A stretch of DNA of 64,000 nucleotides from an uncultured Gammaproteobacteria bacterium (GTDB taxonomy: Bacteria > Patescibacteriota > Microgenomatia > Daviesbacterales > UBA10151): NCBI GenBank assembly GCA_964390595.1, contig CAYMIA010000003.1, positions 17,727 through 81,726 of the forward strand. The letters are read 5' to 3'. The notes below the pieces were generated by a model. That model searched no databases. It was given only the letters and a program-made list of their open reading frames with translations, and was not told the origin of the DNA. Below are positions 1,076 to 45,816 of this stretch, piece after piece. The position numbers were made by a program, and so were the translations under genes. The number at the start of each line of letters is the position of its first letter. Positions within the stretch are counted from its first letter, which is position 1.

Positions 1076-1076
1076 A

Positions 1077-2108: not shown

Positions 2109-3115
2109 TACCAAAGGAGCCCTATATTCTGTGGGAAACCAAAATCTCAGACAATTCCGCAAATCCGATGGTTGATTTAGTGAGATATGCGACCTTAGCT
2201 CCGAGTAGCCATAACACCCAACCTTGGAAGTTTTACTTAGGAGAGGATGAAATAAAAATTCTCCCAGATTCTACTCGGCGTCTGGAATATGCTGATCGTG
2301 CAGATAGGCAGCTATACATCAGCTTGGGGTGTGCCCTCACCAATTTGCTTATAGCCGCTTCTCGCCTTGGTTATAAGTATAATGTTAGCTATTTACCTGA
2401 AGATGAATTGGAAAACGTGGCCGTTAGCATCAAACTGACTAAGTCTAAAAAAACAAGTCCAGAGTTATTTCCTTTTTTAACCAAACGCGTAACCAACCGC
2501 AATAAATATTTAAAGCGCCCAATTGAGGAATCAATTGTTCAAGAAATTTTAGACGCCTCAAAAGATCCGTTAATAAAGATTTACCTTACGAGTGACCTCA
2601 GAATTAGGGCAGATATATCTCAACTCATCTATGAAGCAACAGTTTTTGCCTTCAATGATCAAATATTTAAGGATGAATTGTCAGTTTGGGTCCGCTCTGT
2701 CTTTACCAAATCGAACGATGGCATACCTTTATTTGGCTTTGGTATGCCAGAAATATTATCAGTTATAGCCCCCCTGATGATCAAAAAAATGCCCGCTAAA
2801 ATTCAAGCTAATCTAGATAAAAAGCTCGTCAGTTCCTCTCCCGCTCTCATGGTCATAACATCAAGGGTAAATAATCATGAAGCATGGATTAAAATTGGCC
2901 AAACTTTTGAACTAATTAACTTAATTTGTACCAAACATGGGATCTCAGTAGCTCCGCTTGCATCAATTATCGAACACCCAGATTCTAATCAAAAACTGAA
3001 GTCTATTATAGCAACAGATCAAAAACCTTTGTTTTTTGCCAGACTAGGCTATTCAACAAAAGTGCCTCATCATAGTCCAAGAAGAGATATTCAAGAAGTT
3101 ATAGTTAATGTATGA
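2105..3115 (+). CDS. Nitroreductase-fold (FMN-dependent) protein, ~336 aa two-lobed type
   Basis: LAPSSHNTQPWKF is the nitroreductase FMN-binding signature. The 3' end overlaps the start of the following kinase gene. Confidence 0.6.
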   Translation: MIPKEPYILWETKISDNSANPMVDLVRYATLAPSSHNTQPWKFYLGEDEIKILPDSTRRLEYADRADRQLYISLGCALTNLLIAASRLGYKYNVSYLPEDELENVAVSIKLTKSKKTSPELFPFLTKRVTNRNKYLKRPIEESIVQEILDASKDPLIKIYLTSDLRIRADISQLIYEATVFAFNDQIFKDELSVWVRSVFTKSNDGIPLFGFGMPEILSVIAPLMIKKMPAKIQANLDKKLVSSSPALMVITSRVNNHEAWIKIGQTFELINLICTKHGISVAPLASIIEHPDSNQKLKSIIATDQKPLFFARLGYSTKVPHHSPRRDIQEVIVNV

Positions 3116-12446: not shown

Positions 12447-13229
12447 ATGAACTTAGGTCTTTCGAAGCGTCAAAAGATTATTATCGCCTCTATACTAATT
12501 ACTATAGGACTAATATCAACTCAAATGATCAATGTCTTTTTCCTTCGCAGCCGCTTCATTGTTGGGCTATCAATCATCTCATTTTTGTTTAGTATTTGGG
12601 CGCTTTGGGAGGGTATGACCAAGCTCAAAGCGGCAGTGCTGTTAATTCTACCCGTTATGTTTACCTTAGCAGTTGCCAGCTTCTATTTTTTACTGCCCAT
12701 CCGTTGGCTGACCCGGATTCCGGTCGCACTAGCCTTTGGCATCTCATTTTATTGTCTGCTGCTAGCTCAAAATGTATTTAACGTCGCAGCCACTAGAACC
12801 ATCCCATTATATCGGGCTGCATCAACAGTTTCCTTTTTGTTTACTTTAGTAACCTCGTTCTTTTTATATAATGTCGTTTTTGCTTTAAAACTACCTTTCT
12901 ATTGGAATGGGGTAGCAGTGTTTCTAATTAGCTTCCCGCTAGTTATGCAGATACTCTGGTCGATGGAGATGGAGAAATTAACTGCCCAAATCCTCACCCT
13001 CAGCATCCTGCTCTCGCTAGTAGTAGGAGAGAGTGCCCTGGCGCTATCCTTTTGGCCAGTCGCTCCAACCATCTGGTCACTAGCCTTGTCCACTGTTCTA
13101 TATATTATAGTAGGGGTAGTGACTCAGGTCATGAGGGAGCGTCTTAGTAAGCAGATCATCTGGGAATATTTTGGAATTGGACTGGGGGTATTGATCTTTT
13201 CTATTTTGAGCACCCAATGGACAGGCTAG
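12447..13229 (+). CDS. Polytopic membrane protein, unknown function
   Basis: Seven or more hydrophobic helices. No motif recognised. Confidence 0.45.
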   Translation: MNLGLSKRQKIIIASILITIGLISTQMINVFFLRSRFIVGLSIISFLFSIWALWEGMTKLKAAVLLILPVMFTLAVASFYFLLPIRWLTRIPVALAFGISFYCLLLAQNVFNVAATRTIPLYRAASTVSFLFTLVTSFFLYNVVFALKLPFYWNGVAVFLISFPLVMQILWSMEMEKLTAQILTLSILLSLVVGESALALSFWPVAPTIWSLALSTVLYIIVGVVTQVMRERLSKQIIWEYFGIGLGVLIFSILSTQWTG

Positions 13230-13467
13230 AGGACCGTGAAAAATTCCCGCAAAAACCGTGAAAAGGGTAGTGATATAGTTTGATACAGTCAATAGATTCA
13301 ATTGTGGAAAACTATAAGCCATTCTTCAATTATTCTTACAATTAGGCACAAAACGAAGCTAAATATACTCCCATCTATACTCAAAACACAGAGGAGAGGT
13401 AGCCTGATACTCCATCCGGTACCCTATACAGCAAAAACCCGAAAGTATTAGTCAAGATTACTATCGG

Positions 13468-13483
13468 TTTTCACGCGTGAAAA
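13468..13483. repeat. Perfect 16-bp palindrome TTTTCACGCGTGAAAA; related CGTGAAAA half-sites at 13234-13243 and 13256-13265
   Basis: Read directly from the sequence. Lies in a 964-bp ORF-free region. Confidence 0.6.
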
Positions 13484-14193
13484 AAGCCAGTTAACTCTCT
13501 GGGAGAAGGGAGCAGCAAATAAAGACATGCAGATAGCTACAAAGCAAGCGTGCATGTTTACGTCACTCTGAGGCTCAAGCCACTCTATTACGCTCCACTC
13601 AGACACAAGCCAAGGCTGGTTGATATATCATGTCGTACAATGTAGCTTATGCGACATCGCGAAGCTAGATTTTGAGGAGGAGTGGTCACGTCTATTAAGA
13701 TCTGCACCCAAGGCTGAAATTGATTCAAATTTTAAGTTTACATAATAGGTTCATTTTTGGTCCATTTCCTACTAGTTTTTTGAATGTAAATATTTGGTAA
13801 ATTCCAAAAGGTATCACATCGGGGTTAGACTGTTGCAGCGGCCTAATCTATAGATGACTAAATAGTCATCATCCCCCTCTAAAAACCGTTTTAGGGGCCA
13901 TTTTGGGCCTCGTGGCTAGCCAGCCTGCAACTAATAAACCTACTAATAAAACAGCCACTAAAAGTAGATTTTATCAATATTTTAAGCTATCAACCCGTTA
14001 AAATATCATCTGTGTTCTTAATAGTCACCAGATAACAAATTTGGTTTCCGTTTTAAAATTTTTCATTTTCCAATAAATTTTTCTCTATAATCCAATCTGC
14101 ATGAATTTTTACCGGAACAAAGTCTTAAGTATTTTCGTTGTCGCACAATATAAATTCGGCTTTATTCAGGAAATATTGTAATATAAAAACAGT

Positions 14194-15225
14194 ATGTCGT
14201 TTTTTTCTAGCTTAAGTAAACAGCAACTAATTGGTTTGCTTGTGATCTTAGGCTTGATTATTGGCATTGCTTTCGCCGTTTACTCAACTCAAAGACAGCA
14301 AACTATCCGCAGCCGGGCCGATCAAATCAAACCTGATCCACTGGCGCCTGAGTGTAATGATCTTGAACATCATCCCAAAAGAAGTATCCTTCAAAATGGC
14401 CAATTCGAAGGTGGTTTTACCGGTGGAGTACCAAATGGTTGGACTAAATTTATCTCAGGTAATGCTAGCGTCAATGAAGAAACTGGCTACAATCCATTTG
14501 GCCGAAACGTCCGGATTGAGGTCTCTGGAACTTCAGTTGGTGGGATTTATCAAACGGTTAGTGGTCTTCAACCTGGCCACTGGTACCATGCCTTTTATGG
14601 AGTTGCCCAGCGGGTCTCTGGTAATAGAGACGGCACTGGAGAGCGGGTTGATAACGCTTGGACTGCACTCAAGGAAGTTGGAGTTGACCTAAATGGTGGC
14701 ACAGATCCCAACGCCTCTGATGTAATTTGGGGAGACCGAAGTACTGGTGGCCAAGCTGATTATGATGCTAGACATTTCGCGGGCTGGAGGTTTTTAGGGG
14801 ATAGAAATAATCCCCTAGTTACCTTCTATGCTACTAATCCTGAAGTAACAATTTTTATTAAAGTCACAGGCTATCCCGATATCACTTGGTCAATGAACTG
14901 GATCGATGCCGCTTATCTAGTCCCTTCTTGCCAAAACGGTTCCTTTCCGCCTCCTGGGGGAAGTGCTACTCCAACCCCCTCGCCTATCACATCGGCCACC
15001 CCTGGGCCAAGTGACTCAAGTGAATCTTGTCCAATAACTAGCGCATCTATATCAGCTAGTTGTGCAGAATGTATTCTAGCCAGCAAGCCAGCGCTGCGAG
15101 CCTCTTATGATTTCTTTGACTTGCAAAGTTGCAGTGCATCGAAGATCATAAGTAATTGGTGTCAGGAATTTAACCCCACTACCTGTCAAACCTTAAAACA
15201 AAGCTGTGGGAGCAGCTGTCAATGA
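14194..15225 (+). CDS. Secreted/anchored protein: CBM4/9-like beta-sandwich + C-terminal Cys-rich module
   Basis: N-terminal hydrophobic anchor. NGQFEGGFTGGVPNGWTKF resembles the CBM_4_9 start. The C-terminal ~65 aa carry 8 Cys (CPITSASISASCAECILASKPALRASYDFFDLQSCSASKIISNWCQEFNPTTCQTLKQSCGSSCQ). Confidence 0.5.
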   Translation: MSFFSSLSKQQLIGLLVILGLIIGIAFAVYSTQRQQTIRSRADQIKPDPLAPECNDLEHHPKRSILQNGQFEGGFTGGVPNGWTKFISGNASVNEETGYNPFGRNVRIEVSGTSVGGIYQTVSGLQPGHWYHAFYGVAQRVSGNRDGTGERVDNAWTALKEVGVDLNGGTDPNASDVIWGDRSTGGQADYDARHFAGWRFLGDRNNPLVTFYATNPEVTIFIKVTGYPDITWSMNWIDAAYLVPSCQNGSFPPPGGSATPTPSPITSATPGPSDSSESCPITSASISASCAECILASKPALRASYDFFDLQSCSASKIISNWCQEFNPTTCQTLKQSCGSSCQ

Positions 15226-16706
15226 AACTTTTTAACCAATTCGAATTAACTAAAAAACAATTAATCAGTGCAATTATAATTCTAATCGCTCTGCTGGCAA
15301 TTCCTCTAGGAGTTTACCTGGCGTCTCATCCTCAAATATTTAAAGGCAAAGCCGCCGAACCAACTGATACAACTATCTTTCACCGCCCCGCCTTTGATAC
15401 TGGAGTTGGCATCCATTGGTCAGGTAGTACTGGCGATTATACTAGAGAAAATGCTCAAAATCTGGTCTGTCTGCTCAAAGATATGGGGATTAGTTGGATT
15501 AAAGTATTAGCCAGTGGCGCTAGCGCTGTGGAGTTTGCCGGGATCATGAGACGCAATGATATCGAACCAATTGTCCGGCTATATCGGGACAGACCTGTTC
15601 CCAATCCATTACCCGAATCTGATCTTAATGCAGTGGCAAGCTATGTAGCCCAGGGAGTTTCTTATTTTGAATCTACCAATGAACCTAATATCGATATCGA
15701 ATGGCAAGGTCAAATGCCATCAGATTGCAATACCGCAGTCTCACAAACTATGCAATCCTGGGTTCAAGATGCCGCCAATATCCAAAGGAAGGGTGGAATT
15801 CCTCTCTTCCCCGCTCTTGCACCTGGTGGAATTGCTTGTGATCATAACGACCTAAATTTTTTAAGAGCTTCTTTTGGGTGGTTGCAATCAAATAATTGCA
15901 CTCTGGCCGACGGAACAGAAAGTAATTGTTTAGCCTTATTTGACACTCCCCACAGCAATAATAAACCAGCTGTTATGTCAGTCCATAACTACGATTTAAA
16001 CCATGACAACAGTAAAAATGGTGATGGCTCAATCAATTTTTATACCCAGGACAGCAACGGCTTTCTGCAGTTCAGCTTTTATGACAATATTATCAGACAG
16101 TTTTTAGGCCGGAGTATTCCAATTTTAGCGACCGAAGATGGTACCAGAGTTGGGATAGATAATCAGGATAACCGATTCCCTACCACTGATGCTGCTTGGC
16201 ATCGGGATGTAACAGTGGGAATTGCCCAGTACCAAATGAATAATACCTCACCTTACTTTTTTAATACTGCTTTTTGGCTGGGTATTCCTAATCCAGATGG
16301 GTATTGGGGCGATCAAGCTTGGTTTAATAGAGACCTTTCCCCTATTTTGCCAGAAACCATCAATGGTTTAAAAAACTTATCTAAAAAAAGCCGCAATGGC
16401 TCAAGCCAACAAACTAGTTGTTTAGTTACCACTTCCCCATTGCCTACTCCTACCCCATCCTCTGCCGTCCCAACCGCCACTCCTATAATTTCCGATGCCA
16501 CCTGTAAAATAACTCAAGCCAGTACTATTTCTGCCGCTTGCGCTCAGTGCATTTTAAATCAACAAACTGGGTTGCGGGGGGCATATAATGCCTTTAGTTT
16601 AAGTAATTGCAGCAATCAAAAAATTATTACTCACTGGTGTACTGAGTTTAATCAAACCAGTTGCAGTCAACTTAAAACTTCAACCTGCCAAAGTGTCTGT
16701 CAGTAA
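15222..16706 (+). CDS. Secreted clan GH-A (GH5-like) glycoside hydrolase candidate + C-terminal Cys-rich module
   Basis: FESTNEPNI (NEP acid/base motif) and ILATEDG (candidate nucleophile) are ~150 aa apart. The C-terminal module is homologous to that of the preceding gene. Confidence 0.45.
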   Translation: MKLFNQFELTKKQLISAIIILIALLAIPLGVYLASHPQIFKGKAAEPTDTTIFHRPAFDTGVGIHWSGSTGDYTRENAQNLVCLLKDMGISWIKVLASGASAVEFAGIMRRNDIEPIVRLYRDRPVPNPLPESDLNAVASYVAQGVSYFESTNEPNIDIEWQGQMPSDCNTAVSQTMQSWVQDAANIQRKGGIPLFPALAPGGIACDHNDLNFLRASFGWLQSNNCTLADGTESNCLALFDTPHSNNKPAVMSVHNYDLNHDNSKNGDGSINFYTQDSNGFLQFSFYDNIIRQFLGRSIPILATEDGTRVGIDNQDNRFPTTDAAWHRDVTVGIAQYQMNNTSPYFFNTAFWLGIPNPDGYWGDQAWFNRDLSPILPETINGLKNLSKKSRNGSSQQTSCLVTTSPLPTPTPSSAVPTATPIISDATCKITQASTISAACAQCILNQQTGLRGAYNAFSLSNCSNQKIITHWCTEFNQTSCSQLKTSTCQSVCQ

Positions 16707-16769
16707 AACGCTGTTGACATTCCTGCCCAATTTAAGCCAAGATAGTAATAGCTAGGATTTTAGGCTTTT

Positions 16770-18524
16770 ATGCGTGATTTGATTAACTTTATAAAGCAAA
16801 GACGGAATCTATTTAATATTATCGTTCTGATTATCATTTTAATCGGTATTCCAGTGGGAATTTATGAGGTTGGATTGCAACAAAAACTAAAATCTGGAGC
16901 AGAGGGCGAACCAATCACCTTCTCTGGCCCCAATGAGGGTGATGTCTTTCAAGATCCAAATACCCATGTTTGGTATAGCAAATCCAAAACAATTACCTTT
17001 AATTTCTTCTCTAATTATGGCCTTCCAGCTGCCCCTTCAGCCTCAGCTTCTGCCTCATCTTCTGGTTCAGGAGTTTGTGGTAGATTTTTGCAACAATGTA
17101 ATGGGAACGGTACTCAATGGTGCACCAACGATACAGGAGGTCATGATACCACTGATCTAGTTTGTCCTACACTCAGCGAAGATGCCAGAGGTTGTTTTAA
17201 AACTGAAACTGGCTTAGAAAAAGGCTGCGCCTCAGCTGTTGCAGGAACCTGTACAGGAGATAGTGAATGTACTGATGATAAAGCTTGTCTGGGTAATACT
17301 TGCACTAGTCCCATTTGCAACACCTCTGTTGCGCTTGGGGTATGCCAGAACTTTAACTATGCAAATCACCAGTGCACAATAGTTAACAAATCCAATGGAA
17401 CAGCATGTCGAGTTCCAGGAGTCGATGATGTTGCCGGTACTTGCAACAGCAGTGGAACTTGTGTGGCATCAACAGCTGTCGAAAATACCCTGGCTTTGTG
17501 CAGCAATAATGTGGATGACGACGGTGATGGGAAAATTGATTTTGCTGACCCAGATTGTGTAGGAGTCATACCTGCCCCATCAACCACCTTGGAAGCAGAA
17601 TATATGACTCATCCAGATAGTAAAGCAGCAATTTATACTGATTCTATTGCCAGCAATGGTCATGGTTTAGCCTTTGCTAGTAATACTACTGCTAGCGGTA
17701 AAATTGCTGGACCTGGTGATCAAATGATAATTTTTGCTAAGGGTGAGCTCTGTCCTAACGATCCAAATGGTGCTCCTGATATGACTGTTAAAATTGATGG
17801 AACTGTTGTTGGAACAATGAAAGTTGCTGCAGCAACTAGTGGCGGTTTATATGGCGGTTATAACCCGACAATTCCAACACTAGATGGAAACCCGCATACA
17901 GTCGAAATTAGTTTTGTGAACGATCTATCTCAACCTGGCGTCTGTGATCGGAACTTACGGGTAGACAAAATTGTGCTGAACAGCCAAGCCCCTGGGACAG
18001 CCAGAATGAACGTTAACGTTCTTGCTAACCCAATTGTTGTACAACAGGCAGGCAGTACCGATGCACTTACAATTACCCCAACTGGCGGAGCAAATGGTTT
18101 TACGCTTAATAACTTCCCAATTCAAGTTAATGGAGCAAATTATCCAAAAATACATTGGGTTGAAACTGCAGCCATCTTTGCAGGTACCACCCCCGTTAAT
18201 GCCAAAATAACAGCTGCAGCGGATGTTCCAGTAGGCACTTATAGCGGAACAGCCATAGTATCCGAACAAATCAATACGAACTTTACCAAAACAGTATCAA
18301 TAACTGTCCAAGTAATAGCCCCTCCTCCTAATCCTACTTCAGCGAATTGCCCACCTTATCCAGTGGGTGATTTAAATCAAGACTGTCATATCAACGCAAC
18401 CGACGCTCAGATATTATTAAATGCTTGGGATAATCCGAGTGGGACTGGTAACATAGAAGATAGTTATCAAGACAACACTATTGATTCAGGCGACTTTGCA
18501 GTTTTGTATTCTCATAAAGAATAG
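16770..18524 (+). CDS. Secreted protein: MopE-like Cys-rich metal-binding repeats + CBM6/35-like domain + C-terminal dockerin-like module
   Basis: CSNNVDDDGDGKIDFADPDC is a MopE-type motif. LEAEYMT...GHGLAF...DRNLRVDKIVL is a CBM6-like pattern. GDLNQDCHINATDAQILLNAW fits the dockerin Ca-loop D-x-N-x-D-x-x-I-N-x-x-D. Confidence 0.5.
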   Translation: MRDLINFIKQRRNLFNIIVLIIILIGIPVGIYEVGLQQKLKSGAEGEPITFSGPNEGDVFQDPNTHVWYSKSKTITFNFFSNYGLPAAPSASASASSSGSGVCGRFLQQCNGNGTQWCTNDTGGHDTTDLVCPTLSEDARGCFKTETGLEKGCASAVAGTCTGDSECTDDKACLGNTCTSPICNTSVALGVCQNFNYANHQCTIVNKSNGTACRVPGVDDVAGTCNSSGTCVASTAVENTLALCSNNVDDDGDGKIDFADPDCVGVIPAPSTTLEAEYMTHPDSKAAIYTDSIASNGHGLAFASNTTASGKIAGPGDQMIIFAKGELCPNDPNGAPDMTVKIDGTVVGTMKVAAATSGGLYGGYNPTIPTLDGNPHTVEISFVNDLSQPGVCDRNLRVDKIVLNSQAPGTARMNVNVLANPIVVQQAGSTDALTITPTGGANGFTLNNFPIQVNGANYPKIHWVETAAIFAGTTPVNAKITAAADVPVGTYSGTAIVSEQINTNFTKTVSITVQVIAPPPNPTSANCPPYPVGDLNQDCHINATDAQILLNAWDNPSGTGNIEDSYQDNTIDSGDFAVLYSHKE

Positions 18525-18527
18525 ACT

Positions 18528-19844
18528 ATGAAAGATTTTTTAAATATTATCTTATTACATAAATTACAGGTTGGAATAGTTATATTTATCACTAGTGCGA
18601 TAATAATTGGTTTATATTTAGTTTCTCACCCAACTATATTCAAGCCAAAAGCCAGTGCAGGAGCTCTAAATTTAATTCTTCTTAAATCAGATAAAAACTG
18701 GGCTAAGGATGAAACTTTTGGAGTGGTTGTTGAATTATCCGGAGGGGTTAATGTGGTTAGTGTCAGTACTGGAATGAGATATGATCAGCGAGTCTTAGCT
18801 GTCCAAAGTATCGACTATTCTCCAAGCAATTCTTTGCTACCAACTCACCCAATAACTCAGGGAAAGGATCTCCTTACCATTACTACCGGCGGTAACAATG
18901 GTGGGATTATCAGATTAGCTGCAGTGGCTTTTGAAAACAGCCAATTTAAACCACCAATTGATATCTCAAATAGAACAATCGCTCTTGCTCAAATAAACTT
19001 CAAAGTTATCAGCAATAGCCGCAGTTTAATAAACGATACTGTCAATAACTTAATTAAAACTGACGTCTCGTTTGATGCCGTTGATTCTGTCACTAAGATT
19101 GGTTTCGCTGATGGGACAGTCAGTTCCTTAAATGGCAGTAGAACAGGTGTAAGTGTGCCCGTTATTCCATCTGCTCCAACAGCTTGCACCTTCTCAGTTG
19201 ATAAACCAACAGTTGGGCTAACTGAGGATCATCACTATATAGTTACTCCGACAAATGTCCCCGCGGGAGCAACACTCTGGTTTGGAGGAACAGGTTCATA
19301 TAATGGACCAGGAGCAATTACAGAAGTCCAATATGCCGGTCCTGTTGCATTTCCCCCAAGCACCTCTACATGGACATCAGAGGCGTTTAAAGGCAACCAA
19401 ATTGGTCCACCAGGAACATATACCAGATACGCTAAGATCAAATATTCTGGTGGAGAAACTCAATGTACTCCCACAGTTACTATAGTAGTTGTGGGCTCTA
19501 GCTGTACTCTGACTCTTAATGGAGCTAGTCCAACTGGCAGCAATCCTTTGAGTATCCCTCTTTCTGGAGGAACAACTACCTTTGCAGTCACCTCTAGTAA
19601 TTTGTCTGGAACAGGTCCTTTTACTCTGCATTTTGGCGGTACGGACAATGGTAGTAATTCTCCCCTTTCAGCCAGTGTTGGTAATATTGCTGCCTCAGGG
19701 ACATTTTCAACCCCGGCTTATCCAACCTCAGCGTACGGAGGTGGTACCGGTGGAACATTTAGTCGATACATAATTGTTGCCAACAATGGCAACACCAGCG
19801 CCCCAGTTTGTCAAACGAACACAGTTTATATGGGTATTCATTAG
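18528..19844 (+). CDS. Membrane-anchored cohesin-like protein with C-terminal Ig-like region
   Basis: N-terminal TM helix. ETFGVVVELSGG...GMRYDQRVLAV and GGIIRLAAVAF...IALAQINFKV match the cohesin consensus (..YDp.vLev.., G.la.i.FkV). Confidence 0.45.
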   Translation: MKDFLNIILLHKLQVGIVIFITSAIIIGLYLVSHPTIFKPKASAGALNLILLKSDKNWAKDETFGVVVELSGGVNVVSVSTGMRYDQRVLAVQSIDYSPSNSLLPTHPITQGKDLLTITTGGNNGGIIRLAAVAFENSQFKPPIDISNRTIALAQINFKVISNSRSLINDTVNNLIKTDVSFDAVDSVTKIGFADGTVSSLNGSRTGVSVPVIPSAPTACTFSVDKPTVGLTEDHHYIVTPTNVPAGATLWFGGTGSYNGPGAITEVQYAGPVAFPPSTSTWTSEAFKGNQIGPPGTYTRYAKIKYSGGETQCTPTVTIVVVGSSCTLTLNGASPTGSNPLSIPLSGGTTTFAVTSSNLSGTGPFTLHFGGTDNGSNSPLSASVGNIAASGTFSTPAYPTSAYGGGTGGTFSRYIIVANNGNTSAPVCQTNTVYMGIH

Positions 19845-19866
19845 TATTGAATGAAAGCTTGAAACT

Positions 19867-22695
19867 ATGACAATAATAAAGAACATGCGAATAATCAAAC
19901 AATCCGGATTTTTCTTGGCAACTCTTTTGCTACTCTTTGTTCTAACTCCAGCAGTATCAGCTCAGACCAGCGCTCCTGGGGCTACTTTAAATATTAATGG
20001 ATCTACTGCTAGAGAAATGGATGCTGCTCTAAATCAACCCATTCCAGCAGGCACATTTAAAGCCAGTATGAACGATGCTGATGGTATCCAACAATTTGGA
20101 ATTGTGGCAGTCAAAAAAGGGACTGATGGCAACCCCAATCACACCTATAGCTACCTTTGTAACCCAACTGGATCAACCGCTTACCCTAATGCCACTGTGG
20201 ATTTTTATTTTAACTCAACCACCCATCCTAACTCCAATGATCTAGCCACAAACTCCTTTGTCAGAAACCCAACCGATCCTAACTGGGTGACCTACACTAC
20301 CGCCAACCACGATGGCCGGTATTGCTTCTTGCAGGGCGGAGATAATTATTTTAATGGCGATCTATATAATACTGAGGTGTTTACACTTGGAAACAAAATT
20401 TGGGTCTATAGTACAGCCCATAAAGGAACGGATGGAATTGGTCAAAGAAAAGTGCTGCTCTCTGCAACAGGTGTTCCAGTCTACCAAGAATTTCAAACAG
20501 CTTGTGATGCATCAGAGATGAATGCCAGCAACTGTCATCTAGACACTCTCGCCCATTTTAGAGGTTTCGATACTGATGATCCGAGTAGTGACAACTTTAA
20601 CACTGAAGCAATCTCAATTGGTAATAAACTTTGGGTTTATAGCAAAGCTTTTCGGGGCACTGAAGGTCCGGGGCAAAGAAAAGTCCTAACTCCCAATGGT
20701 GTTAGCATTTTCTCTGAATTTCAAAAAGCCTGCGAAGATGCTGGGATGACCGAAAGTAATTGTCATTTAGATACCCTAGCTCATTTTAAGGGATTTGATA
20801 ATGACACCGACAACTTCGAAGTGCTCTCAATTGGGACTAAGGTCTGGGTTTATGGTAAAGCCGGGACTGGCAATGAAGGGCCAGCTCATCGTTCAGTCGC
20901 TAGCACCACAGTTTTTGATGAATTTCCAACTGCTTGTGCTCAGGCTGTGCCAGCACTTGACCGGGATCATTGTGTACTGACCTCACTTTCCCACTATAAG
21001 GGTTTTGATACTGAAGATACCAGTTCTAATATTTATAACTCTGAAGTGGTTACTATCGGGAATAAAGTTTGGGTTTATGGTAAAACTAATTCAGGCAATG
21101 ACGGGGTTGGTAAACGTTCAGTAATCAGCCCTCCAGGAGATCAAAACAATAGCACTGAATTTCCTAAAGCTTGTACCACTTCAGGGTTAACCATTGATAC
21201 CTGTAAAGTCCGCTCCCTTTCCCAATACAAACAATTTGATGTCGAAACTGCCACAGCCCCCACCACCAAAGAAGCCAATTCTCTAGCCTGGACACCAACT
21301 GAGATTGGAGATTACTATGTTTTGGTTGATGCGATCGACACCAGTAATAATAAGTGTACAGGTAAAGCCAGTGAAATTGGTTATACCTTGCCAAGTAATG
21401 AAACTAGATGTGACGCTACTGACCACAAAGACTATGTAATTGTTCATGTTAAAAACCAGGAAACGACTGATTTTAGATGGGGTTATATCGGCCAACCTGT
21501 GGCCAATGACCACATTAAGACTTGTAATGATCTGGCTACTTTAAATGTTAGCTTCCAGCCTTATACTAGTTTCCCTGTCTCCCAAACTCAGAACTTTCCT
21601 AACCTCACTCCAGGTGACCGGGTCACAGTTTGTGCTCAGTATAAAGATAATACAGGCAAGCTGTCTGAAATCTTTACCAACTATATTATTTATATCGGAG
21701 AAGGCCCATTAATTAACAATCTGTCTTGTGATTTAGATACCAGCACCTCTAAGCTAACCTTTGTATTTAATGGCAACAACTTTGGGCGGACCCAGCAAGG
21801 TCCAGTTACAATAGGTGGACAGGATGCTAATATAACTGCTTGGAGTGATACTCAAATCACTGCCACTATTTCTAGCAACGCACCTAAGGGCGCTGATGGC
21901 TATGTAGCAGCTGTTAAAATTGGTGACCAAACCTACACCAGAACTTGCCAGTTAGGCACTTTAAAGGTCAACCTTGGACCTAGGTTTATGTGCCGTTTCG
22001 TTAACAGCAACGATCTCCCCGGTACTGAGGTCAAAATTGTTGAGTCAGGTGTTGGTGGCAAGCAAATTCTCGCCACGAGTTCAGCTGTAATTGCCGCTAA
22101 AAGGACCGACCGGGATGGCGGAGTGATTAACTTAAATACCACCATTAGTGACTCTAAACTGTACAAAATTAGTGTCAAACCTCAAAAGGGACTGCGAAGA
22201 AACGCTTATCTCTCCGGAGTAAATATCTCAGATACTTCAGGTGGTAATGTCAGCTTGATTCCCATTAAAGCTAAAAATCAGGGTAATTGCACTGATAATT
22301 TTGATGGTTACAACTATATCATTCCATTCGGTGACGTCTATACCCCTAACCCACCAGAAAGATTTGATAAAATCGATACCTTTGACTACTCCACCCTAAA
22401 AAGACAATGGGGCATTAGTAGCGGTCCTCAGAACGCTGACTTTAACGGTGACAAAAAGGTCAATTCTTTTGACTATGCTTGCCAAAGATTTGATATCGGG
22501 GCTTGTGATGACGATCCAGTTGCTCCTGATATTAGCACAACCAATATTGCTTGTACTAAAGATGCCCAGTGTCCAACCGGTCAAACTTGTGATGCTAATA
22601 CTGTAAACTCCAGCGTTTCAACAGTCGGTAAATGCGTAGCAGCAGAGCCAACCAGCAGTGCAACTAATTCCCCTACCCCAACAGCTACTCCCTAA
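19867..22695 (+). CDS. Large secreted repeat protein: 4 tandem ~70-aa repeats, IPT/TIG-like domain, C-terminal dockerin-like module
   Basis: Signal peptide ending AVSAQT. Repeats IGNKxWVY..A..G.eG.GqRkV ... C.LDTLAHFkGFD. CDLDTSTSKLTFVFNGNNFG is IPT/TIG-like. ADFNGDKKVNSFDYACQRF is a dockerin loop. Confidence 0.55.
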   Translation: MTIIKNMRIIKQSGFFLATLLLLFVLTPAVSAQTSAPGATLNINGSTAREMDAALNQPIPAGTFKASMNDADGIQQFGIVAVKKGTDGNPNHTYSYLCNPTGSTAYPNATVDFYFNSTTHPNSNDLATNSFVRNPTDPNWVTYTTANHDGRYCFLQGGDNYFNGDLYNTEVFTLGNKIWVYSTAHKGTDGIGQRKVLLSATGVPVYQEFQTACDASEMNASNCHLDTLAHFRGFDTDDPSSDNFNTEAISIGNKLWVYSKAFRGTEGPGQRKVLTPNGVSIFSEFQKACEDAGMTESNCHLDTLAHFKGFDNDTDNFEVLSIGTKVWVYGKAGTGNEGPAHRSVASTTVFDEFPTACAQAVPALDRDHCVLTSLSHYKGFDTEDTSSNIYNSEVVTIGNKVWVYGKTNSGNDGVGKRSVISPPGDQNNSTEFPKACTTSGLTIDTCKVRSLSQYKQFDVETATAPTTKEANSLAWTPTEIGDYYVLVDAIDTSNNKCTGKASEIGYTLPSNETRCDATDHKDYVIVHVKNQETTDFRWGYIGQPVANDHIKTCNDLATLNVSFQPYTSFPVSQTQNFPNLTPGDRVTVCAQYKDNTGKLSEIFTNYIIYIGEGPLINNLSCDLDTSTSKLTFVFNGNNFGRTQQGPVTIGGQDANITAWSDTQITATISSNAPKGADGYVAAVKIGDQTYTRTCQLGTLKVNLGPRFMCRFVNSNDLPGTEVKIVESGVGGKQILATSSAVIAAKRTDRDGGVINLNTTISDSKLYKISVKPQKGLRRNAYLSGVNISDTSGGNVSLIPIKAKNQGNCTDNFDGYNYIIPFGDVYTPNPPERFDKIDTFDYSTLKRQWGISSGPQNADFNGDKKVNSFDYACQRFDIGACDDDPVAPDISTTNIACTKDAQCPTGQTCDANTVNSSVSTVGKCVAAEPTSSATNSPTPTATP
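20380..21250 (+). repeat. Intragenic tandem repeat array (4 x ~195-210 nt, encoding a ~70-aa Cys-containing unit)
   Basis: Four successive protein segments begin (I/L)GNK(I/L/V)WVY and end HxxGFD. Boundaries are approximate. Confidence 0.5.
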
Positions 22696-22721
22696 TCTGC
22701 TTGTGATGTTATACTGAATTT

Positions 22722-25673
22722 ATGGGTGAATTGGCCGCTCTTCTTAAAAATAAAAAGAATCTGACCAGTCTGTTAATTTTACTCATTTTAATCTTAGCGG
22801 TTCCTTTTGGAGTCCGTTTAGCGCAAACTCAAAAAGTTTTCAAGAGCCAAGCTGAAAATGGCCCAATTGTTTTGTCTGGCGAAAATATCATTACTGATAC
22901 TCAAGGTGCCCAGGTTCTTATAAATAAGCCGCAAGTCGAAGTGACCATCACTTCCCCACTTGGCCCTCCAGCACCGCCTAACTTTACTCCCAGTAGCGCT
23001 AGCGCTTCGGCTTCAATCCCCACAAAAGTGCTTGGACTTTTTTCTAATGAAAGCAGTGTTTGTGGTGAAAGAATCCCTTATAGTTGTAAAGATAGAAATG
23101 GGGTGACCGGCCTTTATTGGTGCGAGGATATTAGCAAGGCCAATTCCGCATGCCTTAGTCCAGGTTGCTATTCACAAAGAGTTGGCGGAAATCTGAACGT
23201 TTGCAACACATCGGCCTCGATCTTTTCCAGCGTTCCAGAGCAGCTCATTCCCAAAAAGACCTCCCAAGTCTCTTTAGTCAAAACAGCTTATGCAGCTGCT
23301 TGCTATCAATGTAAGTGCTATCACATCAAAGCCATTAATGATGGTGAAAATTCCTATGCAGTCACCGATCCCTCGCAATGTACTGATAATTTCTGCCAAG
23401 TTGTTAAACAATGGGGACAAGAGCAAGGTGGTGCTGGAGCCGCCTCAATTTCCCCTAACTGTGCTAACACTTGTACTGATCAGTGCGTCAGGACTGGTGG
23501 GACGTCGGGTGGCACTTCTGGAGGTGGGTCAGGTGGTTCCTGTAATTTGGCCACTAACTATCAAACACCAACTAGATCGGCAGCTTGTGTGGCTTGCTTA
23601 AGCAACAAGCGTCCAGATGTGGTGCCATTTTTTAACGCTAACAACCATACAACTTGCACTTCCACTCAGGACTTCAATCATTGGTGTAATGGTGGCGTCT
23701 CACCTGTTGCTACCTGCCAGTGTGCTAATGTCACCAATCAATATTGCCAAACTGAGTGTGGTGGACAGGTTACCTTGCCAACTAGTTGCGCTGCTGGTGA
23801 TGTTGGTCCAGTAGTTAACACTGCTACTCCTACCCCTGGTACAGGAGGAGCTTGTCAGTTGCAACGCCAATCCCCTTCTCTTTCCTTAAGTTGCGCAACT
23901 TGCATCGTTGACTCCAAGGATGGGTTAAAAGAAAATTATCAAACTTTAACTGGTACCCAGACCTGCTCAGATGTGCAAATTGCCAATCATTACTGCAATG
24001 GCGGGCTTCCTGGCGGTACAGCGGAGTGCCAGCAAATTAAAGCTAATACTTGCAGCTTAGAGTGTTCACCAGACACAAGTAATAATCCAAGTAGTCCGAG
24101 TGGTTCTAGTGGCGCACCTTCATCAGATACCCCAACCGCCTCGATCAATGGCTCTTTCTCTGACCCCAAAACTAATCAATCTCTTACCTTCCAAGTTGAA
24201 GCTCAAATTAGCTCTGATGTGGCCAGTTTAACTAAGGGTGAAGTTTTAGTCATCAAACGGGACCAAACTGATCCTTTAACCTGGGGTTGTTCTAGCGAGT
24301 CTAAAATAGATAGCAAGACCTGCAAAATCAAAACCTCCCTACTTGCCGGAAATGATGACTCCTTTACAGCGACTTGGACGCCACTAAAATCTGGTATTTA
24401 CTATGTTTATGCCGATGCCTTTGCCTCAAATGAAACTAAATGTAGCGGAACCCCCAACCTTCCCCTACCCGCTGGGGTTACCTCATGTGGTGATAGTGCT
24501 AGAACCACAGTCGAGATTAAAGATACGATTTATACTTTAAGCTATAAAGTCGCTGAAGACTATGAATCCCTTAAAACTGCCGAACCAAAGCCCTACACCA
24601 CTGAGCCAACTAAGTTTACCTATAACTTTAAAAATGACGCTCTTGGCACTAAAACAATTATTATCGAATTCTCCTCCTCTGATGGCAAAACTAAAACTGA
24701 GATTGAAAGCATTAAATACATCGGTCCAGATCCGCAGATAAGTAATTTGAAATGCGACTTAGATATTACCAGCGGTTCGGTTAAAGCCACCTTTAAAGGC
24801 AAAAACTTTGGTACTACCCAAGGCACAATTTCTACAAGTTCATCTGATCAGTCAACTGGACTTGGGAGTCCCGTCTGGACAAATGATAGTGTCCAAGTTA
24901 CCCTCCCCAATGCCATTTCAGTCAATAACTCCAGCGAATCAAATGGGTCCAGCGCCCAGAAAGCCGACTATACTTTAACGCTGACCCGCGCCGATGGTAG
25001 GAAGGATACGGAGCATTGCAGCGTTGGAGTGTCAGAATTATCCCTTGGCACTAATTTCTTCTGTAAAGCCAAAAATAACACCGACATTGATAACGCTGAC
25101 TTAGGCATTATTGAAGATAGCCCAGGTTCCAAAGTTATTCAAGAAAAAACTCAAATTAAAAAGGGTGGCACTGTCGAAATAAAGACCCTCCTCCAAGAAG
25201 GTAAAAAATATATTATCGGGCTAAAAGCTCCTTTAACACTCCGCAAAGACTCAAACATCTCCGGACTCGTTGGCACAACAGTACTTAATGATTTTGTACT
25301 ACCTCTAGGCAATCTTATCACCCCGCAGGGTCAGGAACTCTCAGATAAGATTGATACATTTGATTATGCTGAACTAAAAAACCAGTGGTCTGGCACTGCA
25401 TCTCCATCTGCTCAAACTAGATCAGCGGATCTAAATCTAGACAACAAGGTCAACTCATTTGACTATGCTTGTTTCAGATATGATTTTGGAAAAACTGATG
25501 ACCCAAATCCCGCCTCCCTTGCCATTCAAAGCAGTGCGGCTGGAAATTGCACTCATGCTAGTTGCGATGTGGTCCCTAGTGGTTGTGAAGTCACCGGACG
25601 GGTTTTGGACAGCTGCGATGTTAACAGACCTGCCACTTGTGGACAACTGGTTTGTCAGAACTTGAGTCCCTAA
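22722..25673 (+). CDS. Large secreted protein, paralog of the upstream gene in its C-terminal half; two copies of the Cys-rich module, IPT/TIG-like domain, dockerin-like module
   Basis: N-terminal anchor. AACVACLSNKRPDV...HWCNGG and SCATCIVDSKDG...HYCNGG modules. CDLDITSGSVKATFKGKNFG. ADLNLDNKVNSFDYACFRY dockerin loop. Confidence 0.55.
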   Translation: MGELAALLKNKKNLTSLLILLILILAVPFGVRLAQTQKVFKSQAENGPIVLSGENIITDTQGAQVLINKPQVEVTITSPLGPPAPPNFTPSSASASASIPTKVLGLFSNESSVCGERIPYSCKDRNGVTGLYWCEDISKANSACLSPGCYSQRVGGNLNVCNTSASIFSSVPEQLIPKKTSQVSLVKTAYAAACYQCKCYHIKAINDGENSYAVTDPSQCTDNFCQVVKQWGQEQGGAGAASISPNCANTCTDQCVRTGGTSGGTSGGGSGGSCNLATNYQTPTRSAACVACLSNKRPDVVPFFNANNHTTCTSTQDFNHWCNGGVSPVATCQCANVTNQYCQTECGGQVTLPTSCAAGDVGPVVNTATPTPGTGGACQLQRQSPSLSLSCATCIVDSKDGLKENYQTLTGTQTCSDVQIANHYCNGGLPGGTAECQQIKANTCSLECSPDTSNNPSSPSGSSGAPSSDTPTASINGSFSDPKTNQSLTFQVEAQISSDVASLTKGEVLVIKRDQTDPLTWGCSSESKIDSKTCKIKTSLLAGNDDSFTATWTPLKSGIYYVYADAFASNETKCSGTPNLPLPAGVTSCGDSARTTVEIKDTIYTLSYKVAEDYESLKTAEPKPYTTEPTKFTYNFKNDALGTKTIIIEFSSSDGKTKTEIESIKYIGPDPQISNLKCDLDITSGSVKATFKGKNFGTTQGTISTSSSDQSTGLGSPVWTNDSVQVTLPNAISVNNSSESNGSSAQKADYTLTLTRADGRKDTEHCSVGVSELSLGTNFFCKAKNNTDIDNADLGIIEDSPGSKVIQEKTQIKKGGTVEIKTLLQEGKKYIIGLKAPLTLRKDSNISGLVGTTVLNDFVLPLGNLITPQGQELSDKIDTFDYAELKNQWSGTASPSAQTRSADLNLDNKVNSFDYACFRYDFGKTDDPNPASLAIQSSAAGNCTHASCDVVPSGCEVTGRVLDSCDVNRPATCGQLVCQNLSP

Positions 25674-25734
25674 AACAGGAGGACCTCTTGCAAACTTAGG
25701 TCGAAATATCTTAAGCTTAAAGTAAGTAGAAAAA

Positions 25735-26388
25735 ATGGATACCAACCCAAGCTCGCCCACTAGCCCAATAATTATTCAGACCAATCAATCAGCGCCTAGT
25801 TCCAGCCCAAATCAAAAAGGCTATGGCAAATGGGTTATCAGAGTAATATTACTAGTTCTGGTAGTTGTCATTGGTTTGGAGATCTTTAATGCAGCCAAAT
25901 TGTTAAATAAATCTAAATCAGCAACCCCTGTCTTTGCTAGACTTCAACCCCTATCTGGCGGTCACCTTACTCTTCTGGCAGATAAAAAAGAGTATCAAGT
26001 TGGTGAAACCATCACTGTTTCAGTCCGCATGTTTACTGGCGGACACCCGACCGATGGAACTGATCTAGTTTTAAAATATGATCCTAAATTATTGGAAATC
26101 ACAAGCGCCTTTTTTGCCAAAGGTAACACCTATAACGATTACCCATTTTCTAGCTTTGACCCAACTAAAGGTGAGATCCAGATATCAGGTATCACTTCCC
26201 TTTCCCAAAATGGTTTTAATGGGGCTGGGGTTTTTGGTACACTAACTATGAAGGCCAAATCAGCTGGGATAGCCAATTTAACAATTGACTTTACTCCAGA
26301 CCGGACGACTGATTCAAATATGGTTGAATCAACCTCAGCTAAAGATATCTTAAGCCAGGTAGATAACTTAAGTCTAACTATAAAATAA
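25735..26388 (+). CDS. N-terminally anchored cohesin-like protein
   Basis: TDLVLKYDPKLLEIT and GAGVFGTLTMKAKSAGIANLTIDF match the cohesin consensus. TM helix at residues ~35-55. Confidence 0.5.
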   Translation: MDTNPSSPTSPIIIQTNQSAPSSSPNQKGYGKWVIRVILLVLVVVIGLEIFNAAKLLNKSKSATPVFARLQPLSGGHLTLLADKKEYQVGETITVSVRMFTGGHPTDGTDLVLKYDPKLLEITSAFFAKGNTYNDYPFSSFDPTKGEIQISGITSLSQNGFNGAGVFGTLTMKAKSAGIANLTIDFTPDRTTDSNMVESTSAKDILSQVDNLSLTIK

Positions 26389-27119
26389 TGAAAAAAATAA
26401 TAAGCGCTTTAGTATTGGCAGTTGCAGTTTTGGCTAGCCCTGCTAGCGTATTCGCCTCAACCTTATCATTTAGTCCATCCTCTGCCACTATTAACCGGGG
26501 CTGCAGCCTCCAAGTCAATATTTTAGTTGATACCAGAGATAATCCTGGGAGCAGTTCAGATCCAGGGCGTGAAACTGACGGTACAGACGCCATCTTCTCA
26601 TATGATACTACCAGATTCTCTCTCGATAACTCCTCTATAACTAATGGGACAATTTATGCTGATTACCCAGGAAATACAGTTGATCAGCAAGCTGGCAAAG
26701 TTAGTATCTCTGGACTTGCTCCAGTCTCTCAAGGATTCAAGGGCTCTGGCATTTTTGCCACAATTACTTTAAAAGCTTTAGATAATGCCCCAGCAGGCAC
26801 CACCAACCTAACATTTGATTTTGACCCCAATCAAAAAGATAAAACCACTGATTCAAATGTGGTTGAAAGAGGTACAGTTGTTGACACCCTAAACTCAGTT
26901 ACCAATGGAACATACACCATTGGAACAGGAGCCTGTAATCAAACGGGCTTAGGTGTCGGCCTACCATTACCCCAGGGTGGCGTTGGTACAAACCCTACAG
27001 CTACTCCTTCAGCTCAAAAAATGTTGCCTAACTCTGGTGTGCTTAGCCCAACCATCATTATGGCTGGAGTAGGTGGCATTCTAGTTATTTTAGGAATTCT
27101 TGGACTGGCTCTTCTATAG
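26388..27119 (+). CDS. Secreted cohesin-like protein with C-terminal LPNSG + hydrophobic anchor
   Basis: Signal peptide VFAST. DAIFSYDTTRFSL and GSGIFATITLKALDNAPAGTTNLTFDF (cohesin). The C-terminus is LPNSG followed by a ~25-aa hydrophobic stretch. Confidence 0.55.
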   Translation: MKKIISALVLAVAVLASPASVFASTLSFSPSSATINRGCSLQVNILVDTRDNPGSSSDPGRETDGTDAIFSYDTTRFSLDNSSITNGTIYADYPGNTVDQQAGKVSISGLAPVSQGFKGSGIFATITLKALDNAPAGTTNLTFDFDPNQKDKTTDSNVVERGTVVDTLNSVTNGTYTIGTGACNQTGLGVGLPLPQGGVGTNPTATPSAQKMLPNSGVLSPTIIMAGVGGILVILGILGLALL

Positions 27120-27128: not shown

Positions 27129-28076
27129 ATGACTCTCTCTGAATTAGTGACTGACTTTCTTGAATATTTAGAGTTAGAAAAAAATGCCTCACAGCGCACT
27201 ATCAAAAACTATGATCATTATCTGCGCCGTTTCGTCGATTTTGCCGGCGATATTGAAGCCGGAAAAATTGATTTAGGATTAATCAGAAAATACCGGTTAT
27301 ATCTGTCCAGATACACTGATCCCAAGACCGAGCAGCATTTAAAAAGAGTGACACAAAACTATTTCATGATCGCTCTCCGGGCTTTTCTGCGCTACCTGGC
27401 TCGCCTAGATATTCCCACTTTATCAGCTGAAAAAGTTGAGTTAGGTGAACAAGATCCCTCTCCACTTAAAGTTTTAGAGGAAGATCACTTGGATAGATTA
27501 CTCGCTGCTCCTGATACTTCAGACCAGGCGGGCTTGCGTGATAAAGCAATTTTAGAAATGCTTTTTTCGACAGGACTGCGGGTCTCTGAACTCTCATCTT
27601 TAAATTGTGATCAGATCAACCTAAAAAGACAGGAGTTTGGAATCGTCGGCAAAGGTGGCAAGGAAAGAGTAGTTTTTATCTCTGATGATGCCACTAACTG
27701 GCTGGAGCAATATCTCAAGACTCGAAATGACGCCTTTAAGCCACTCTTCATCCGTTATCAAGGCAAAGTCAGTCAGGAAGATGATGGTGAGGCCATGAGA
27801 CTGACCACCCGTTCAATCGAACGTATCGTTGAGAAGTATGTCAAGGAAATCGGATTGCCAATTAAAGCCACTCCTCACACTTTGCGTCACAGTTTTGCAA
27901 CGGACTTACTTATTAATGGTGCAGACATCAGGTCAGTTCAAGAGATGCTTGGTCATTCAAATATCTCAACTACTCAAATTTATACCCATGTTACCAACCG
28001 CCAATTAAAAGAGGTCCACAAATCTTTCCATGGCAAACGCCGCGGAGAAGAAATTGAAAGCAAGGAGACTACCTAA
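27129..28076 (+). CDS. xerD: Tyrosine site-specific recombinase, XerC/XerD family
   Basis: N-terminal SAM-like domain (LEYLELEKNASQRTIKNY). Catalytic R..HTLRHSFAT..LGHSNISTTQIYTHV with the Tyr nucleophile. Confidence 0.8.
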   Translation: MTLSELVTDFLEYLELEKNASQRTIKNYDHYLRRFVDFAGDIEAGKIDLGLIRKYRLYLSRYTDPKTEQHLKRVTQNYFMIALRAFLRYLARLDIPTLSAEKVELGEQDPSPLKVLEEDHLDRLLAAPDTSDQAGLRDKAILEMLFSTGLRVSELSSLNCDQINLKRQEFGIVGKGGKERVVFISDDATNWLEQYLKTRNDAFKPLFIRYQGKVSQEDDGEAMRLTTRSIERIVEKYVKEIGLPIKATPHTLRHSFATDLLINGADIRSVQEMLGHSNISTTQIYTHVTNRQLKEVHKSFHGKRRGEEIESKETT

Positions 28077-42822: not shown

Positions 42823-42823
42823 T

Positions 42824-43903: not shown

Positions 43904-43906
43904 ACT

Positions 43907-45118: not shown

Positions 45119-45187
45119 TACACCTTTCAGCAACTTACAGCTTGCAGATAAGCTCACAACTTCTTTTTCTTAAGGCGGTTTTACCAC

Positions 45188-45218
45188 TTGACGGACCAAG
45201 AAGTTTTATGACTACAAT
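45188..45218 (+). promoter_or_regulatory. Candidate promoter for pilA (TTGACG ... TACAAT, 19-nt spacer) followed by strong RBS AAAGGAGGTGA at 45235-45245
   Basis: Hexamers read from the sequence. Spacer is longer than optimal. RBS is 10 nt before the ATG. Confidence 0.3.
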
Positions 45219-45810: not shown

Positions 45811-45816
45811 GAGAAA

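Follow-up and report, generated by a model that had tools for sequence, protein, structure and literature searches.

Does a gene cluster that encodes cohesin- and dockerin-like modules in a candidate phyla radiation (CPR) bacterium constitute a cellulosome and, if not, what would it do? The question is raised by positions 14194-27119 of the DNA presented above, a stretch of contig CAYMIA010000003.1 that was analysed over its full length of 64,000 nucleotides (nt) and is hereafter termed the window. This cluster comprises eight tightly packed open reading frames (ORFs), G1 to G8, all on the forward strand (Table 1). A preliminary description, made from the letters and a list of ORFs, had read them as eight co-directional genes for secreted or anchored proteins following the component logic of a cellulosome, and had added that they could form an attachment or polysaccharide-processing complex. 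The gene inventory was borne out: all ORFs were recovered at the coordinates listed, each protein possesses a single N-terminal hydrophobic segment according to Kyte-Doolittle analysis, with an extra C-terminal one in G8 only, and every quoted motif was located in the gene named for it. Regarding function, we consider it probable, with some reserve, that the cluster encodes a non-cellulosomal cohesin-dockerin system for the surface display of variable glycan-binding or adhesin cargo in a Daviesbacteria-like CPR bacterium. The broader wording, an attachment or polysaccharide-processing complex, fits the evidence.

The cohesin assignment was carried by G7 and G8, which scored 38.1 bits (E = 2.2e-9) and 33.7 bits, respectively, against the Pfam Cohesin model (PF00963), whose gathering cut-off is 24.1 bits. 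The homologues of G8 numbered 338, and PF00963 was present on almost all among the 120 listed. Some of them are already named 'cohesin domain-containing protein [Candidatus Daviesbacteria]' and, as database annotation thus precedes us, the module calls are not new. The members of the G8 family span ~235-260 amino acids (aa) and consist of a signal peptide, a cohesin, a linker, an LPxxG motif and a hydrophobic C-terminus that ends in GILGLALL (alignment A3); the LPxxG motif was found in most, not all, homologues, a few of which are devoid of LP. From the predicted domains and membrane segments, we show that G7 and G8 are single-cohesin proteins with two different predicted anchors.

The dockerin signature, consisting of two tandem loop-plus-helix segments of ~22 residues each, can be recognised in the sequences of G3, G5 and G6. 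The score of G6 against Dockerin_1 (PF00404), 26.5 bits, exceeds the gathering cut-off of 22.9. A profile, termed A5, in which the dockerin segments of G3, G5 and G6 were aligned with those of five orthologous proteins encoded at related loci and of two orthologues of G2, was compared with all sequences of the PDB. Its top match was the type-I dockerin of CelS (E = 5e-11), with both repeats aligned; the ~30 best matches were all dockerins, and EF-hand proteins followed only at E > 3e-3, with troponin C and calmodulin at E >= 0.0046. The alternative entertained in the preliminary description, namely that the loops are generic EF-hand or calx-type calcium sites, is disfavoured as far as EF-hands are concerned, since dockerins are matched far ahead of EF-hand proteins. 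When the G3 segment was searched alone, the match was weak (E = 0.03), and the six best matches were again all dockerins. This segment features two calcium-binding loops, DLNQDCHINATD and EDSYQDNTIDSGD, and the second loop is likewise canonical in G5 (DFNGDKKVNSFD) and G6 (DLNLDNKVNSFD). Both dockerin helices (LDKxELNRQW and S[IF]DWAC[MQ]R) are strongly kept across species, yet unlike each other, and such unlike but conserved repeats argue against a symmetric dual-binding design. The C-terminal location ascribed to these modules holds for G3; in G5 and G6, a Cys-rich tail of ~60 aa comes after the dockerin, which is therefore not at the extreme C-terminus.

The occurrence of the cluster in related genomes, a survey of which had been proposed in the preliminary description, was assessed on a sample of 67 loci from GTDB species genomes that were scanned with local hidden Markov models (HMMs). 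A G7-type cohesin gene was found immediately 5' of a G8-type gene at 54 of the 58 loci with enough upstream DNA. The full co-directional trio, comprising the gene for a large dockerin protein followed by a G7-type and a G8-type gene, was present at 45 of 49 Daviesbacteria/Microgenomates loci, and stop and start codons often overlap. Its position is fixed between ruvC-DUF5656 and tyrosine recombinase-gyrA, as in the window. The number of members varies, with a second dockerin gene beside one G7-type and one G8-type gene at seven loci, and with a set enlarged by added pairs of dockerin and G7-type genes at L002, L005 and L045. The conserved trio and its architecture appear undescribed.

The large dockerin protein of the trio, represented in the window by G6, is conserved at its ends and divergent in between. 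The 45 G6-type proteins range from 517 to 1248 aa, and every one of them matches G6 by BLAST. The C-terminal cassette of ~330 aa, which includes Ig-like, TIG, beta-sandwich and dockerin modules, was covered (aa ~650-900) by 42-43 of the 45 proteins and the leader by 19, while any part of aa 100-600 was covered by at most ~1. Such a layout, with a middle region unique to each protein between a leader and an Ig/TIG/beta-sandwich stalk that are both conserved, suggests a fast-evolving head. Pfam analysis of 46 G6-type proteins retrieved Dockerin in 33 (E <= 1e-3), TIG in 13 and cohesin in three, together with sporadic F5/8C, CBM60, fn3 and beta-helix domains, and no recurrent enzyme domain.

Two further observations concern these proteins. 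The three G6-type dockerin proteins that also bear a cohesin are encoded at L015 (7504-9348), L026 (7883-9658) and L048 (267-3194); from their domain content, they have an adaptor-scaffoldin architecture that would allow a second docking layer at those loci. In addition, a leader is shared by the N-termini of G2, G3, G4 and G6 (e.g. 22722-22860) and of orthologues at L002 and L005. It consists of a basic KKN-type start, a hydrophobic stretch of ~21-23 residues and a Q-rich segment ...Q[IK][FL]xSxA, is common to otherwise unrelated secreted proteins, and may be a lineage-specific signal peptide cleaved after Ala or a sorting tag.

In the mechanism we propose, the exported dockerins of G6, as the core partner, and of G5 and G3 would dock in a calcium-dependent manner onto the cohesin of G7, that of G8, or both, and this predicted docking would hold the dockerin proteins on the cell surface. 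The system would thereby present a fast-evolving binding head, possibly an adhesin or a glycan-binding region, directed at a host cell or a polymer. Several points weigh against this proposal. First, we infer the cohesin-dockerin pairing only from gene linkage and family membership. Second, the Dockerin_1 scores of G5 (21.9 bits) and G3 (20.9 bits) lie 1-2 bits under the cut-off of 22.9; of the three dockerin-like proteins singled out in the preliminary description, G6 is the one over the cut-off. Third, G5 and G6 of this genome have a degenerate first calcium loop, for which their orthologues show canonical sequences (GDGAINTLD, NADDSINSID). Fourth, the profile of the G8 family matched no solved cohesin in the PDB at E < 0.01, and single-sequence matches to scaffoldin cohesins were weak (E 0.6-0.95), so that the cohesin membership of G7 and G8 rests on the Pfam model. 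Fifth, the C-terminus of G8, LPNSG-(hydrophobic)-GILGLALL, does not end in the basic tail typical of LPXTG signals, and a search of all ORFs of the window for the TLxTC motif revealed no sortase; from its composition, this C-terminus may act as a sorting signal of another kind or simply as a tail anchor. Finally, with ~21-23 residues, the hydrophobic segments at the N-termini of G1-G4 and G6 are long and are possibly uncleaved anchors, in which case docking would be less needed.

These points bear on the main rival explanation, under which the modules would not pair at all: the dockerin-like segments would be calcium-binding stabilisers or bind other partners, and the small cohesin proteins would be structural beta-sandwich components of the envelope or of an S-layer type, with no more than an operon in common with the secreted proteins. 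The degenerate first loops would agree with it, as would the excess of dockerins (three) over confirmed cohesins (two) in the window and the seven loci with two dockerin genes for one G7-type and one G8-type gene. Cohesin and dockerin modules are also reportedly widespread outside cellulosomes, with function unproven; the present case resembles these in its non-cellulolytic host and in a possible role in cell-cell or glycan interactions. Tight linkage in the great majority of loci (45/49) argues against such independence, as does duplication in the form of dockerin plus cohesin pairs, and the strong conservation of both dockerin helices is what is expected with a conserved partner. We regard the absence of pairing as decidedly unlikely.

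The display reading must also be set against the cellulosome logic of the preliminary description, i.e. anchored scaffoldins plus dockerin-tagged enzymes, which did not survive inspection of the modules. Within the window, no multi-cohesin scaffoldin was detected, the cohesins being confined to G7 and G8 with one copy each, and no dockerin-bearing enzyme was found, as the sole enzyme, G2, lacks a dockerin. Moreover, Pfam and NCBIfam searches returned no catalytic domain in G3, G5 and G6, and both CBM3 and SLH modules are absent from the cluster. Since there is neither a multi-cohesin scaffoldin nor a dockerin-tagged enzyme, the cluster is, judging by its gene content, not a cellulosome. The related notion of a true (mini-)cellulosome, in which anchored scaffoldins would assemble dockerin-tagged plant-cell-wall hydrolases for the breakdown of cellulose or hemicellulose, draws on the encounter of a clan GH-A glycosidase with cohesin, dockerin and CBM60 modules in one cluster, on the GH5 domain of three of 60 proteins with the 8-Cys module described below, and on the carbohydrate degradation predicted for CPR bacteria such as Dojkabacteria (PMC7038595). 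We nevertheless deem it very improbable, given that no protein has more than one cohesin, that CBM3 is missing, that the dockerin proteins are not catalytic and the only enzyme is not dockerin-tagged, and that the lineage-wide core partner is non-enzymatic with a unique middle.

Comparison with known systems delimits the proposed display system further. The cellulosome of Acetivibrio thermocellus, built on CipA, and the amylosome of Ruminococcus bromii (PMC4611034) employ the same two module families, in keeping with the CelS match, but classical cellulosomes rely on a multi-cohesin scaffoldin, dockerin-tagged enzymes, CBM3 and SLH, none of which is found here. Closer in layout are the anchoring branch of the Ruminococcus flavefaciens cellulosome, of the ScaE type with a single, sortase-attached cohesin, and the class of 'non-SLH anchoring scaffoldins' (PMC11557425): G8 is likewise a small protein in which a signal peptide, a single cohesin and a linker precede an LPxxG-plus-hydrophobic anchor, with a predicted role in tethering dockerin-bearing partners to the surface. 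G8 differs in having no basic tail after the hydrophobic helix and no sortase gene in the window; furthermore, the partners here are not enzyme-loaded scaffoldins, and the host is a CPR bacterium instead of a fibre-degrading Firmicute. In Cellulosilyticum lentocellum, the adjacent genes of the single-cohesin and single-dockerin proteins ClcC and ClcD encode a small complex (PMC13487519), and this arrangement of neighbouring cohesin and dockerin genes, rather than a large cellulosome, is similar to the one described here. In that species, however, the dockerin is borne by a cellulase, and cellulose hydrolysis is enhanced by the complex, whereas no enzyme domain can be recognised in the partner here, whose middle is unique; likewise, one cohesin contrasts with two differently anchored ones.

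The remaining dockerin proteins, G3 and G5, would supply further cargo. G3 would contribute a glycan-binding module; the CBM6-like module of the preliminary description was identified instead as this CBM60 (PF16841), with 45.2 bits against a cut-off of 28.2. An acidic double-disulfide repeat of the same protein scored 35 bits against a cut-off of 41. All-against-all BLAST aligned aa 446-924 of G5 with aa 523-977 of G6 (E = 7.5e-51), and Pfam found a TIG domain in G5 with 20.9 bits. G5 also contains four tandem repeats of ~71-76 aa each (nt 20488-21122, aa ~208-420; listed as D1/D2), with two cysteines per repeat and the pattern N-x-E-V-x-x-I-G-N-K-V-W-V-Y ... C ... C-H-L-D-T-L-x-H-F-x-G-F-D, for which no family match was found.

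The enzyme of the cluster, G2, had been described as a GH5-like hydrolase, which holds at the clan level, GH-A, and not at the family level. No match was obtained against Pfam or NCBIfam, including GH5 (PF00150), and identity to members of GH39, GH5, GH128, GH51 and GH72 is ~11-12%. Only 10 homologues were found among 5.8 billion proteins, and in all of them N153-E154-P155-N156 (NEPN) and T304-E305 (TE[GD]G) are invariant. The AlphaFold2 (AF2) model has a mean predicted local distance difference test (pLDDT) value of 70.9, with many blocks of the barrel >90, and fits clan GH-A barrels; Foldseek matched it to GH5_4, GH39/PslG and GH72. From motifs and model, G2 is a predicted clan GH-A glycosidase with E154, of the NEP motif, as the putative acid/base and E305 as the putative nucleophile, whose family cannot be assigned. 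It shares with the GH39-like PslG and other clan GH-A enzymes the (beta/alpha)8 barrel, the NEP motif of the predicted acid/base and the predicted downstream Glu nucleophile, and departs from them in its low identity, the lack of a Pfam GH family match and its scarcity of homologues.

The preceding gene encodes G1, for which a CBM4/9-like module had been proposed. Its score against CBM_4_9 (PF02018), 13.3 bits, falls under the cut-off of 25.9, so that it is CBM4/9-like at best, and a profile of G1, P0002 and P0004 found no relative in the PDB. In these two relatives, the G1 module is fused to a G2-type catalytic domain, N-terminally in P0002 and C-terminally in P0004, which indicates that G1 and G2 are functionally linked. 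Both proteins, with G1 as accessory, would belong to the display unit, because they have in common with G6 an unannotated module of ~70 aa with eight invariant cysteines (8-Cys), through which they would be associated, and because G2 orthologues carry a dockerin in its place: P0003 and P0004 have a dockerin-like end instead of the Cys-rich module, with sub-threshold Pfam scores of 18.6 and 18.9 bits.

All-against-all BLAST placed this module at the C-termini of G1 and G2, whose copies are 50% identical, and, in two copies, within G6. An exhaustive HMM search detected it in only 80 proteins among 1.84 billion cluster representatives, frequently in several copies that are often in tandem, and it has no Pfam or PDB relative. 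Of these proteins, 60 were analysed with Pfam, which revealed Dockerin_1 in 18, Peptidase_M23 in eight and GH5 in three, as well as TIG, SdrD_B, subtilase, 3D, SH3_3 and CBM_4_9 domains and a cohesin. By domain context, 8-Cys is a module of secreted proteins, often alongside dockerins and wall-lytic or glycan-active domains.

Such companions bring up a host-cell-envelope attack complex, whose displayed proteins would attach to a bacterial host and cut its cell wall or surface glycans after binding them, in the service of episymbiotic or predatory feeding. The M23 peptidases and the 3D, SH3_3 and subtilase domains of 8-Cys proteins would be consistent with it, and so would P0008 and P0009, two distant G2 homologues (~30% identity) that are fused to N-acetylmuramoyl-L-alanine amidase. 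The exopolysaccharide hydrolase PslG is among the closest folds to G2, and dockerin and glycan-binding proteins of a Saccharibacterium were speculated to be aimed at host glycans (Cell 2023). No lytic domain (M23, amidase or lysozyme) was detected in the cluster with Pfam and NCBIfam, however; the amidase fusions occur in distant homologues, whose substrate may differ, and CBM60 is known as a xylan/galactan binder. We therefore rate envelope attack as unlikely. The surface-display system that we prefer may be directed at the host envelope, in view of the links to amidase and M23 domains and of the likeness of the G2 fold to PslG, or at an environmental glycan, in view of CBM60, with exopolysaccharides and plant glycans among the candidates.

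A third cohesin had been proposed in the preliminary description, and this was G4, which, compared with the confirmed G7 and G8, stays unproven from its sequence. G4 retrieved only itself among 5.8 billion proteins and had no match in Pfam, even with the isolated domain at E <= 10. Profile alignment with hhalign gave a weak E-value of 0.054 against the G8 family and an in-register alignment at E = 0.0023 against a combined G7/G8-type profile, with a probability of only 13%. The single-sequence AF2 model was unusable (pLDDT 38.6). G4 starts 3 nt past the dockerin gene G3 and has the anchor-then-beta-domain layout of G7, and this G3-G4 arrangement is like that of the pairs of dockerin and G7-type genes at other loci. 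Based on this resemblance, G3-G4 may be a second, divergent dockerin/cohesin pair.

A bolder version of the display reading, which we put forward as possible but doubtful, would see in the trio the host-recognition apparatus of Daviesbacteria. An exported, fast-evolving receptor-binding protein would engage a membrane-anchored and a wall-anchored cohesin through its asymmetric dockerin and so be retained non-covalently on the cell, heads could be exchanged or multiplied (G5, G3/G4, G2/G1) with the anchor unchanged, and 8-Cys would add to the CPR secretome a second module for docking or binding, itself new.

The genomic setting is compact. From G1 to G8 and on to the recombinase gene that starts at 27129, successive intergenic gaps measure -4, 63, 3, 22, 26, 61, -1 and 9 nt. 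A DUF5656 gene and ruvC are found upstream, and a tyrosine recombinase gene and gyrA downstream. Promoter- and terminator-like sites, as operon signals, occurred at chance level, and neither tRNA nor Rfam matches were found in the window. The closest relatives of the cluster proteins belong to Candidatus Daviesbacteria/Microgenomates genomes, which agrees with the CPR-like host of the preliminary description, and the assignment of this genome as CPR-type and Daviesbacteria-like is supported by these homologues. Many metagenome-assembled genome (MAG) records of the TPA 'binchicken' series that contain a Daviesbacteria-type locus (L008-L016 and others) are titled 'uncultured Gammaproteobacteria bacterium', which looks like a placeholder or mislabel.

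The XerC/D-like tyrosine recombinase gene (27129-28076) comes after the G8-type gene in every locus inspected; the distance is 9 nt in the window and up to ~125 nt at L002-L005. Phase variation by this adjacent recombinase was considered and rejected, as no long inverted repeats surround the cluster. In L005, a second integrase and unrelated small genes sit between DUF5656 and the cluster, and these insertions, together with the recombinase, suggest the spacer as an insertion hot spot. The same spacer harbours three conserved non-coding blocks. Block 3, of ~105 nt, has a near-invariant core, GCCGTTTT, and was found by blastn and nhmmer at 45 loci, in a single copy at each and without exception on the strand of the cluster; block 2, GTCGnACAATGTAnCTTATGCGAC, lies ~200 nt 5' of it. 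They may represent a non-coding RNA, a leader or a DNA site. As to a structured RNA, the blocks had no match in Rfam at the gathering score or at E <= 1. RNAalifold yielded no consensus structure, a hand-drawn three-helix model performed no better than column shuffles, and no covariation could be demonstrated.

Farther away, the pilus-rich context noted in the preliminary description was confirmed by a complete type IV pilus gene set at 41116-55083, which encodes PilB-like and PilT-like ATPases, PilC, a prepilin peptidase, PilX-like and PilM proteins, and at least four pilins with an N-methylation motif. At 11-5339, an ORF without Pfam match (11-1075) is followed by genes for a ThiF-family protein, a nitroreductase-like protein and a 7TM-receptor histidine kinase; judging by their families, the adjacent ThiF and nitroreductase genes could form a small unit for modification or biosynthesis.

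Table 1. Features of the cluster and its upstream spacer, in window coordinates.
Feature	Position (nt)	Strand	Description
Non-coding blocks 1-3	13229-13323, 13624-13682, 13821-13926	+	Strand given for blocks 2 and 3; in 965-nt ORF-free spacer (13229-14194) upstream of G1; conserved across Daviesbacteria loci
G1 (343 aa)	14194-15225	+	N-terminal hydrophobic segment, ~190-aa beta-rich module, Pro/Thr/Ser linker, C-terminal 8-Cys (nt 15019-15222)
G2 (494 aa)	15222-16706	+	Predicted clan GH-A (beta/alpha)8 glycosidase, C-terminal 8-Cys (nt 16494-16703), without dockerin
G3 (584 aa)	16770-18524	+	Leader, Cys-rich region with acidic Ca-type repeat, CBM60, Ig-like region, C-terminal dockerin
G3 modules	CBM60 17763-17999 (aa 332-410); dockerin 18366-18506	+	Pfam
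G4 (438 aa)	18528-19844	+	N-terminal anchor/leader, beta domain at aa ~43-190 (possibly cohesin-like) and a pair of Ig-like repeats; orphan
G5 (942 aa)	19867-22695	+	Signal peptide, four tandem Cys repeats, Ig-like/TIG/beta-sandwich/dockerin cassette, Cys-rich tail
G5 dockerin	22369-22506	+	Dockerin_1, 21.9 bits
G6 (983 aa)	22722-25673	+	Conserved leader, unique Cys-rich middle, ~330-aa stalk cassette with dockerin; trio member
G6 modules	8-Cys 23529-23765 and 23841-24071; dockerin 25305-25496	+	BLAST, Pfam
G7 (217 aa)	25735-26388	+	Short N-terminal cytoplasmic tail, one transmembrane helix (aa ~33-55), single cohesin (nt 25981-26316)
G8 (243 aa)	26388-27119	+	Signal peptide, cohesin (Pfam, nt 26583-26852), Pro/Gly/Thr linker, LPNSG plus hydrophobic helix (nt 27024-27116)

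To our knowledge, little has been learnt about the way in which CPR bacteria (Patescibacteria) select their hosts and attach to them, and only a few Saccharibacteria are genetically tractable. Within the CPR, a dockerin protein, SEML1_0315, is essential in the epibiotic Saccharibacterium Southlakia epibionticum (PMC10633639) and sets a precedent for the importance of such proteins; the description of that protein included neither an operon nor a conserved cohesin partner, in contrast to the three-gene unit found here in ~45 species of another CPR lineage. The genomic survey of cellulosome-displaying bacteria that defines the non-SLH anchoring scaffoldins never mentions Patescibacteria (PMC11557425), and a full-text literature search returned no paper that links CPR, Microgenomates or Daviesbacteria with cohesin-dockerin systems. 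The rare 8-Cys module and the unassigned clan GH-A family are flagged for characterisation. As the domains are small, their recombinant expression for binding tests is feasible. The trio would broaden cohesin-dockerin biology by a minimal arrangement that has two anchors and is non-enzymatic and, being present in ~45 species with a species-specific head, is a testable candidate for surface display and for host or substrate recognition in an uncultured lineage.

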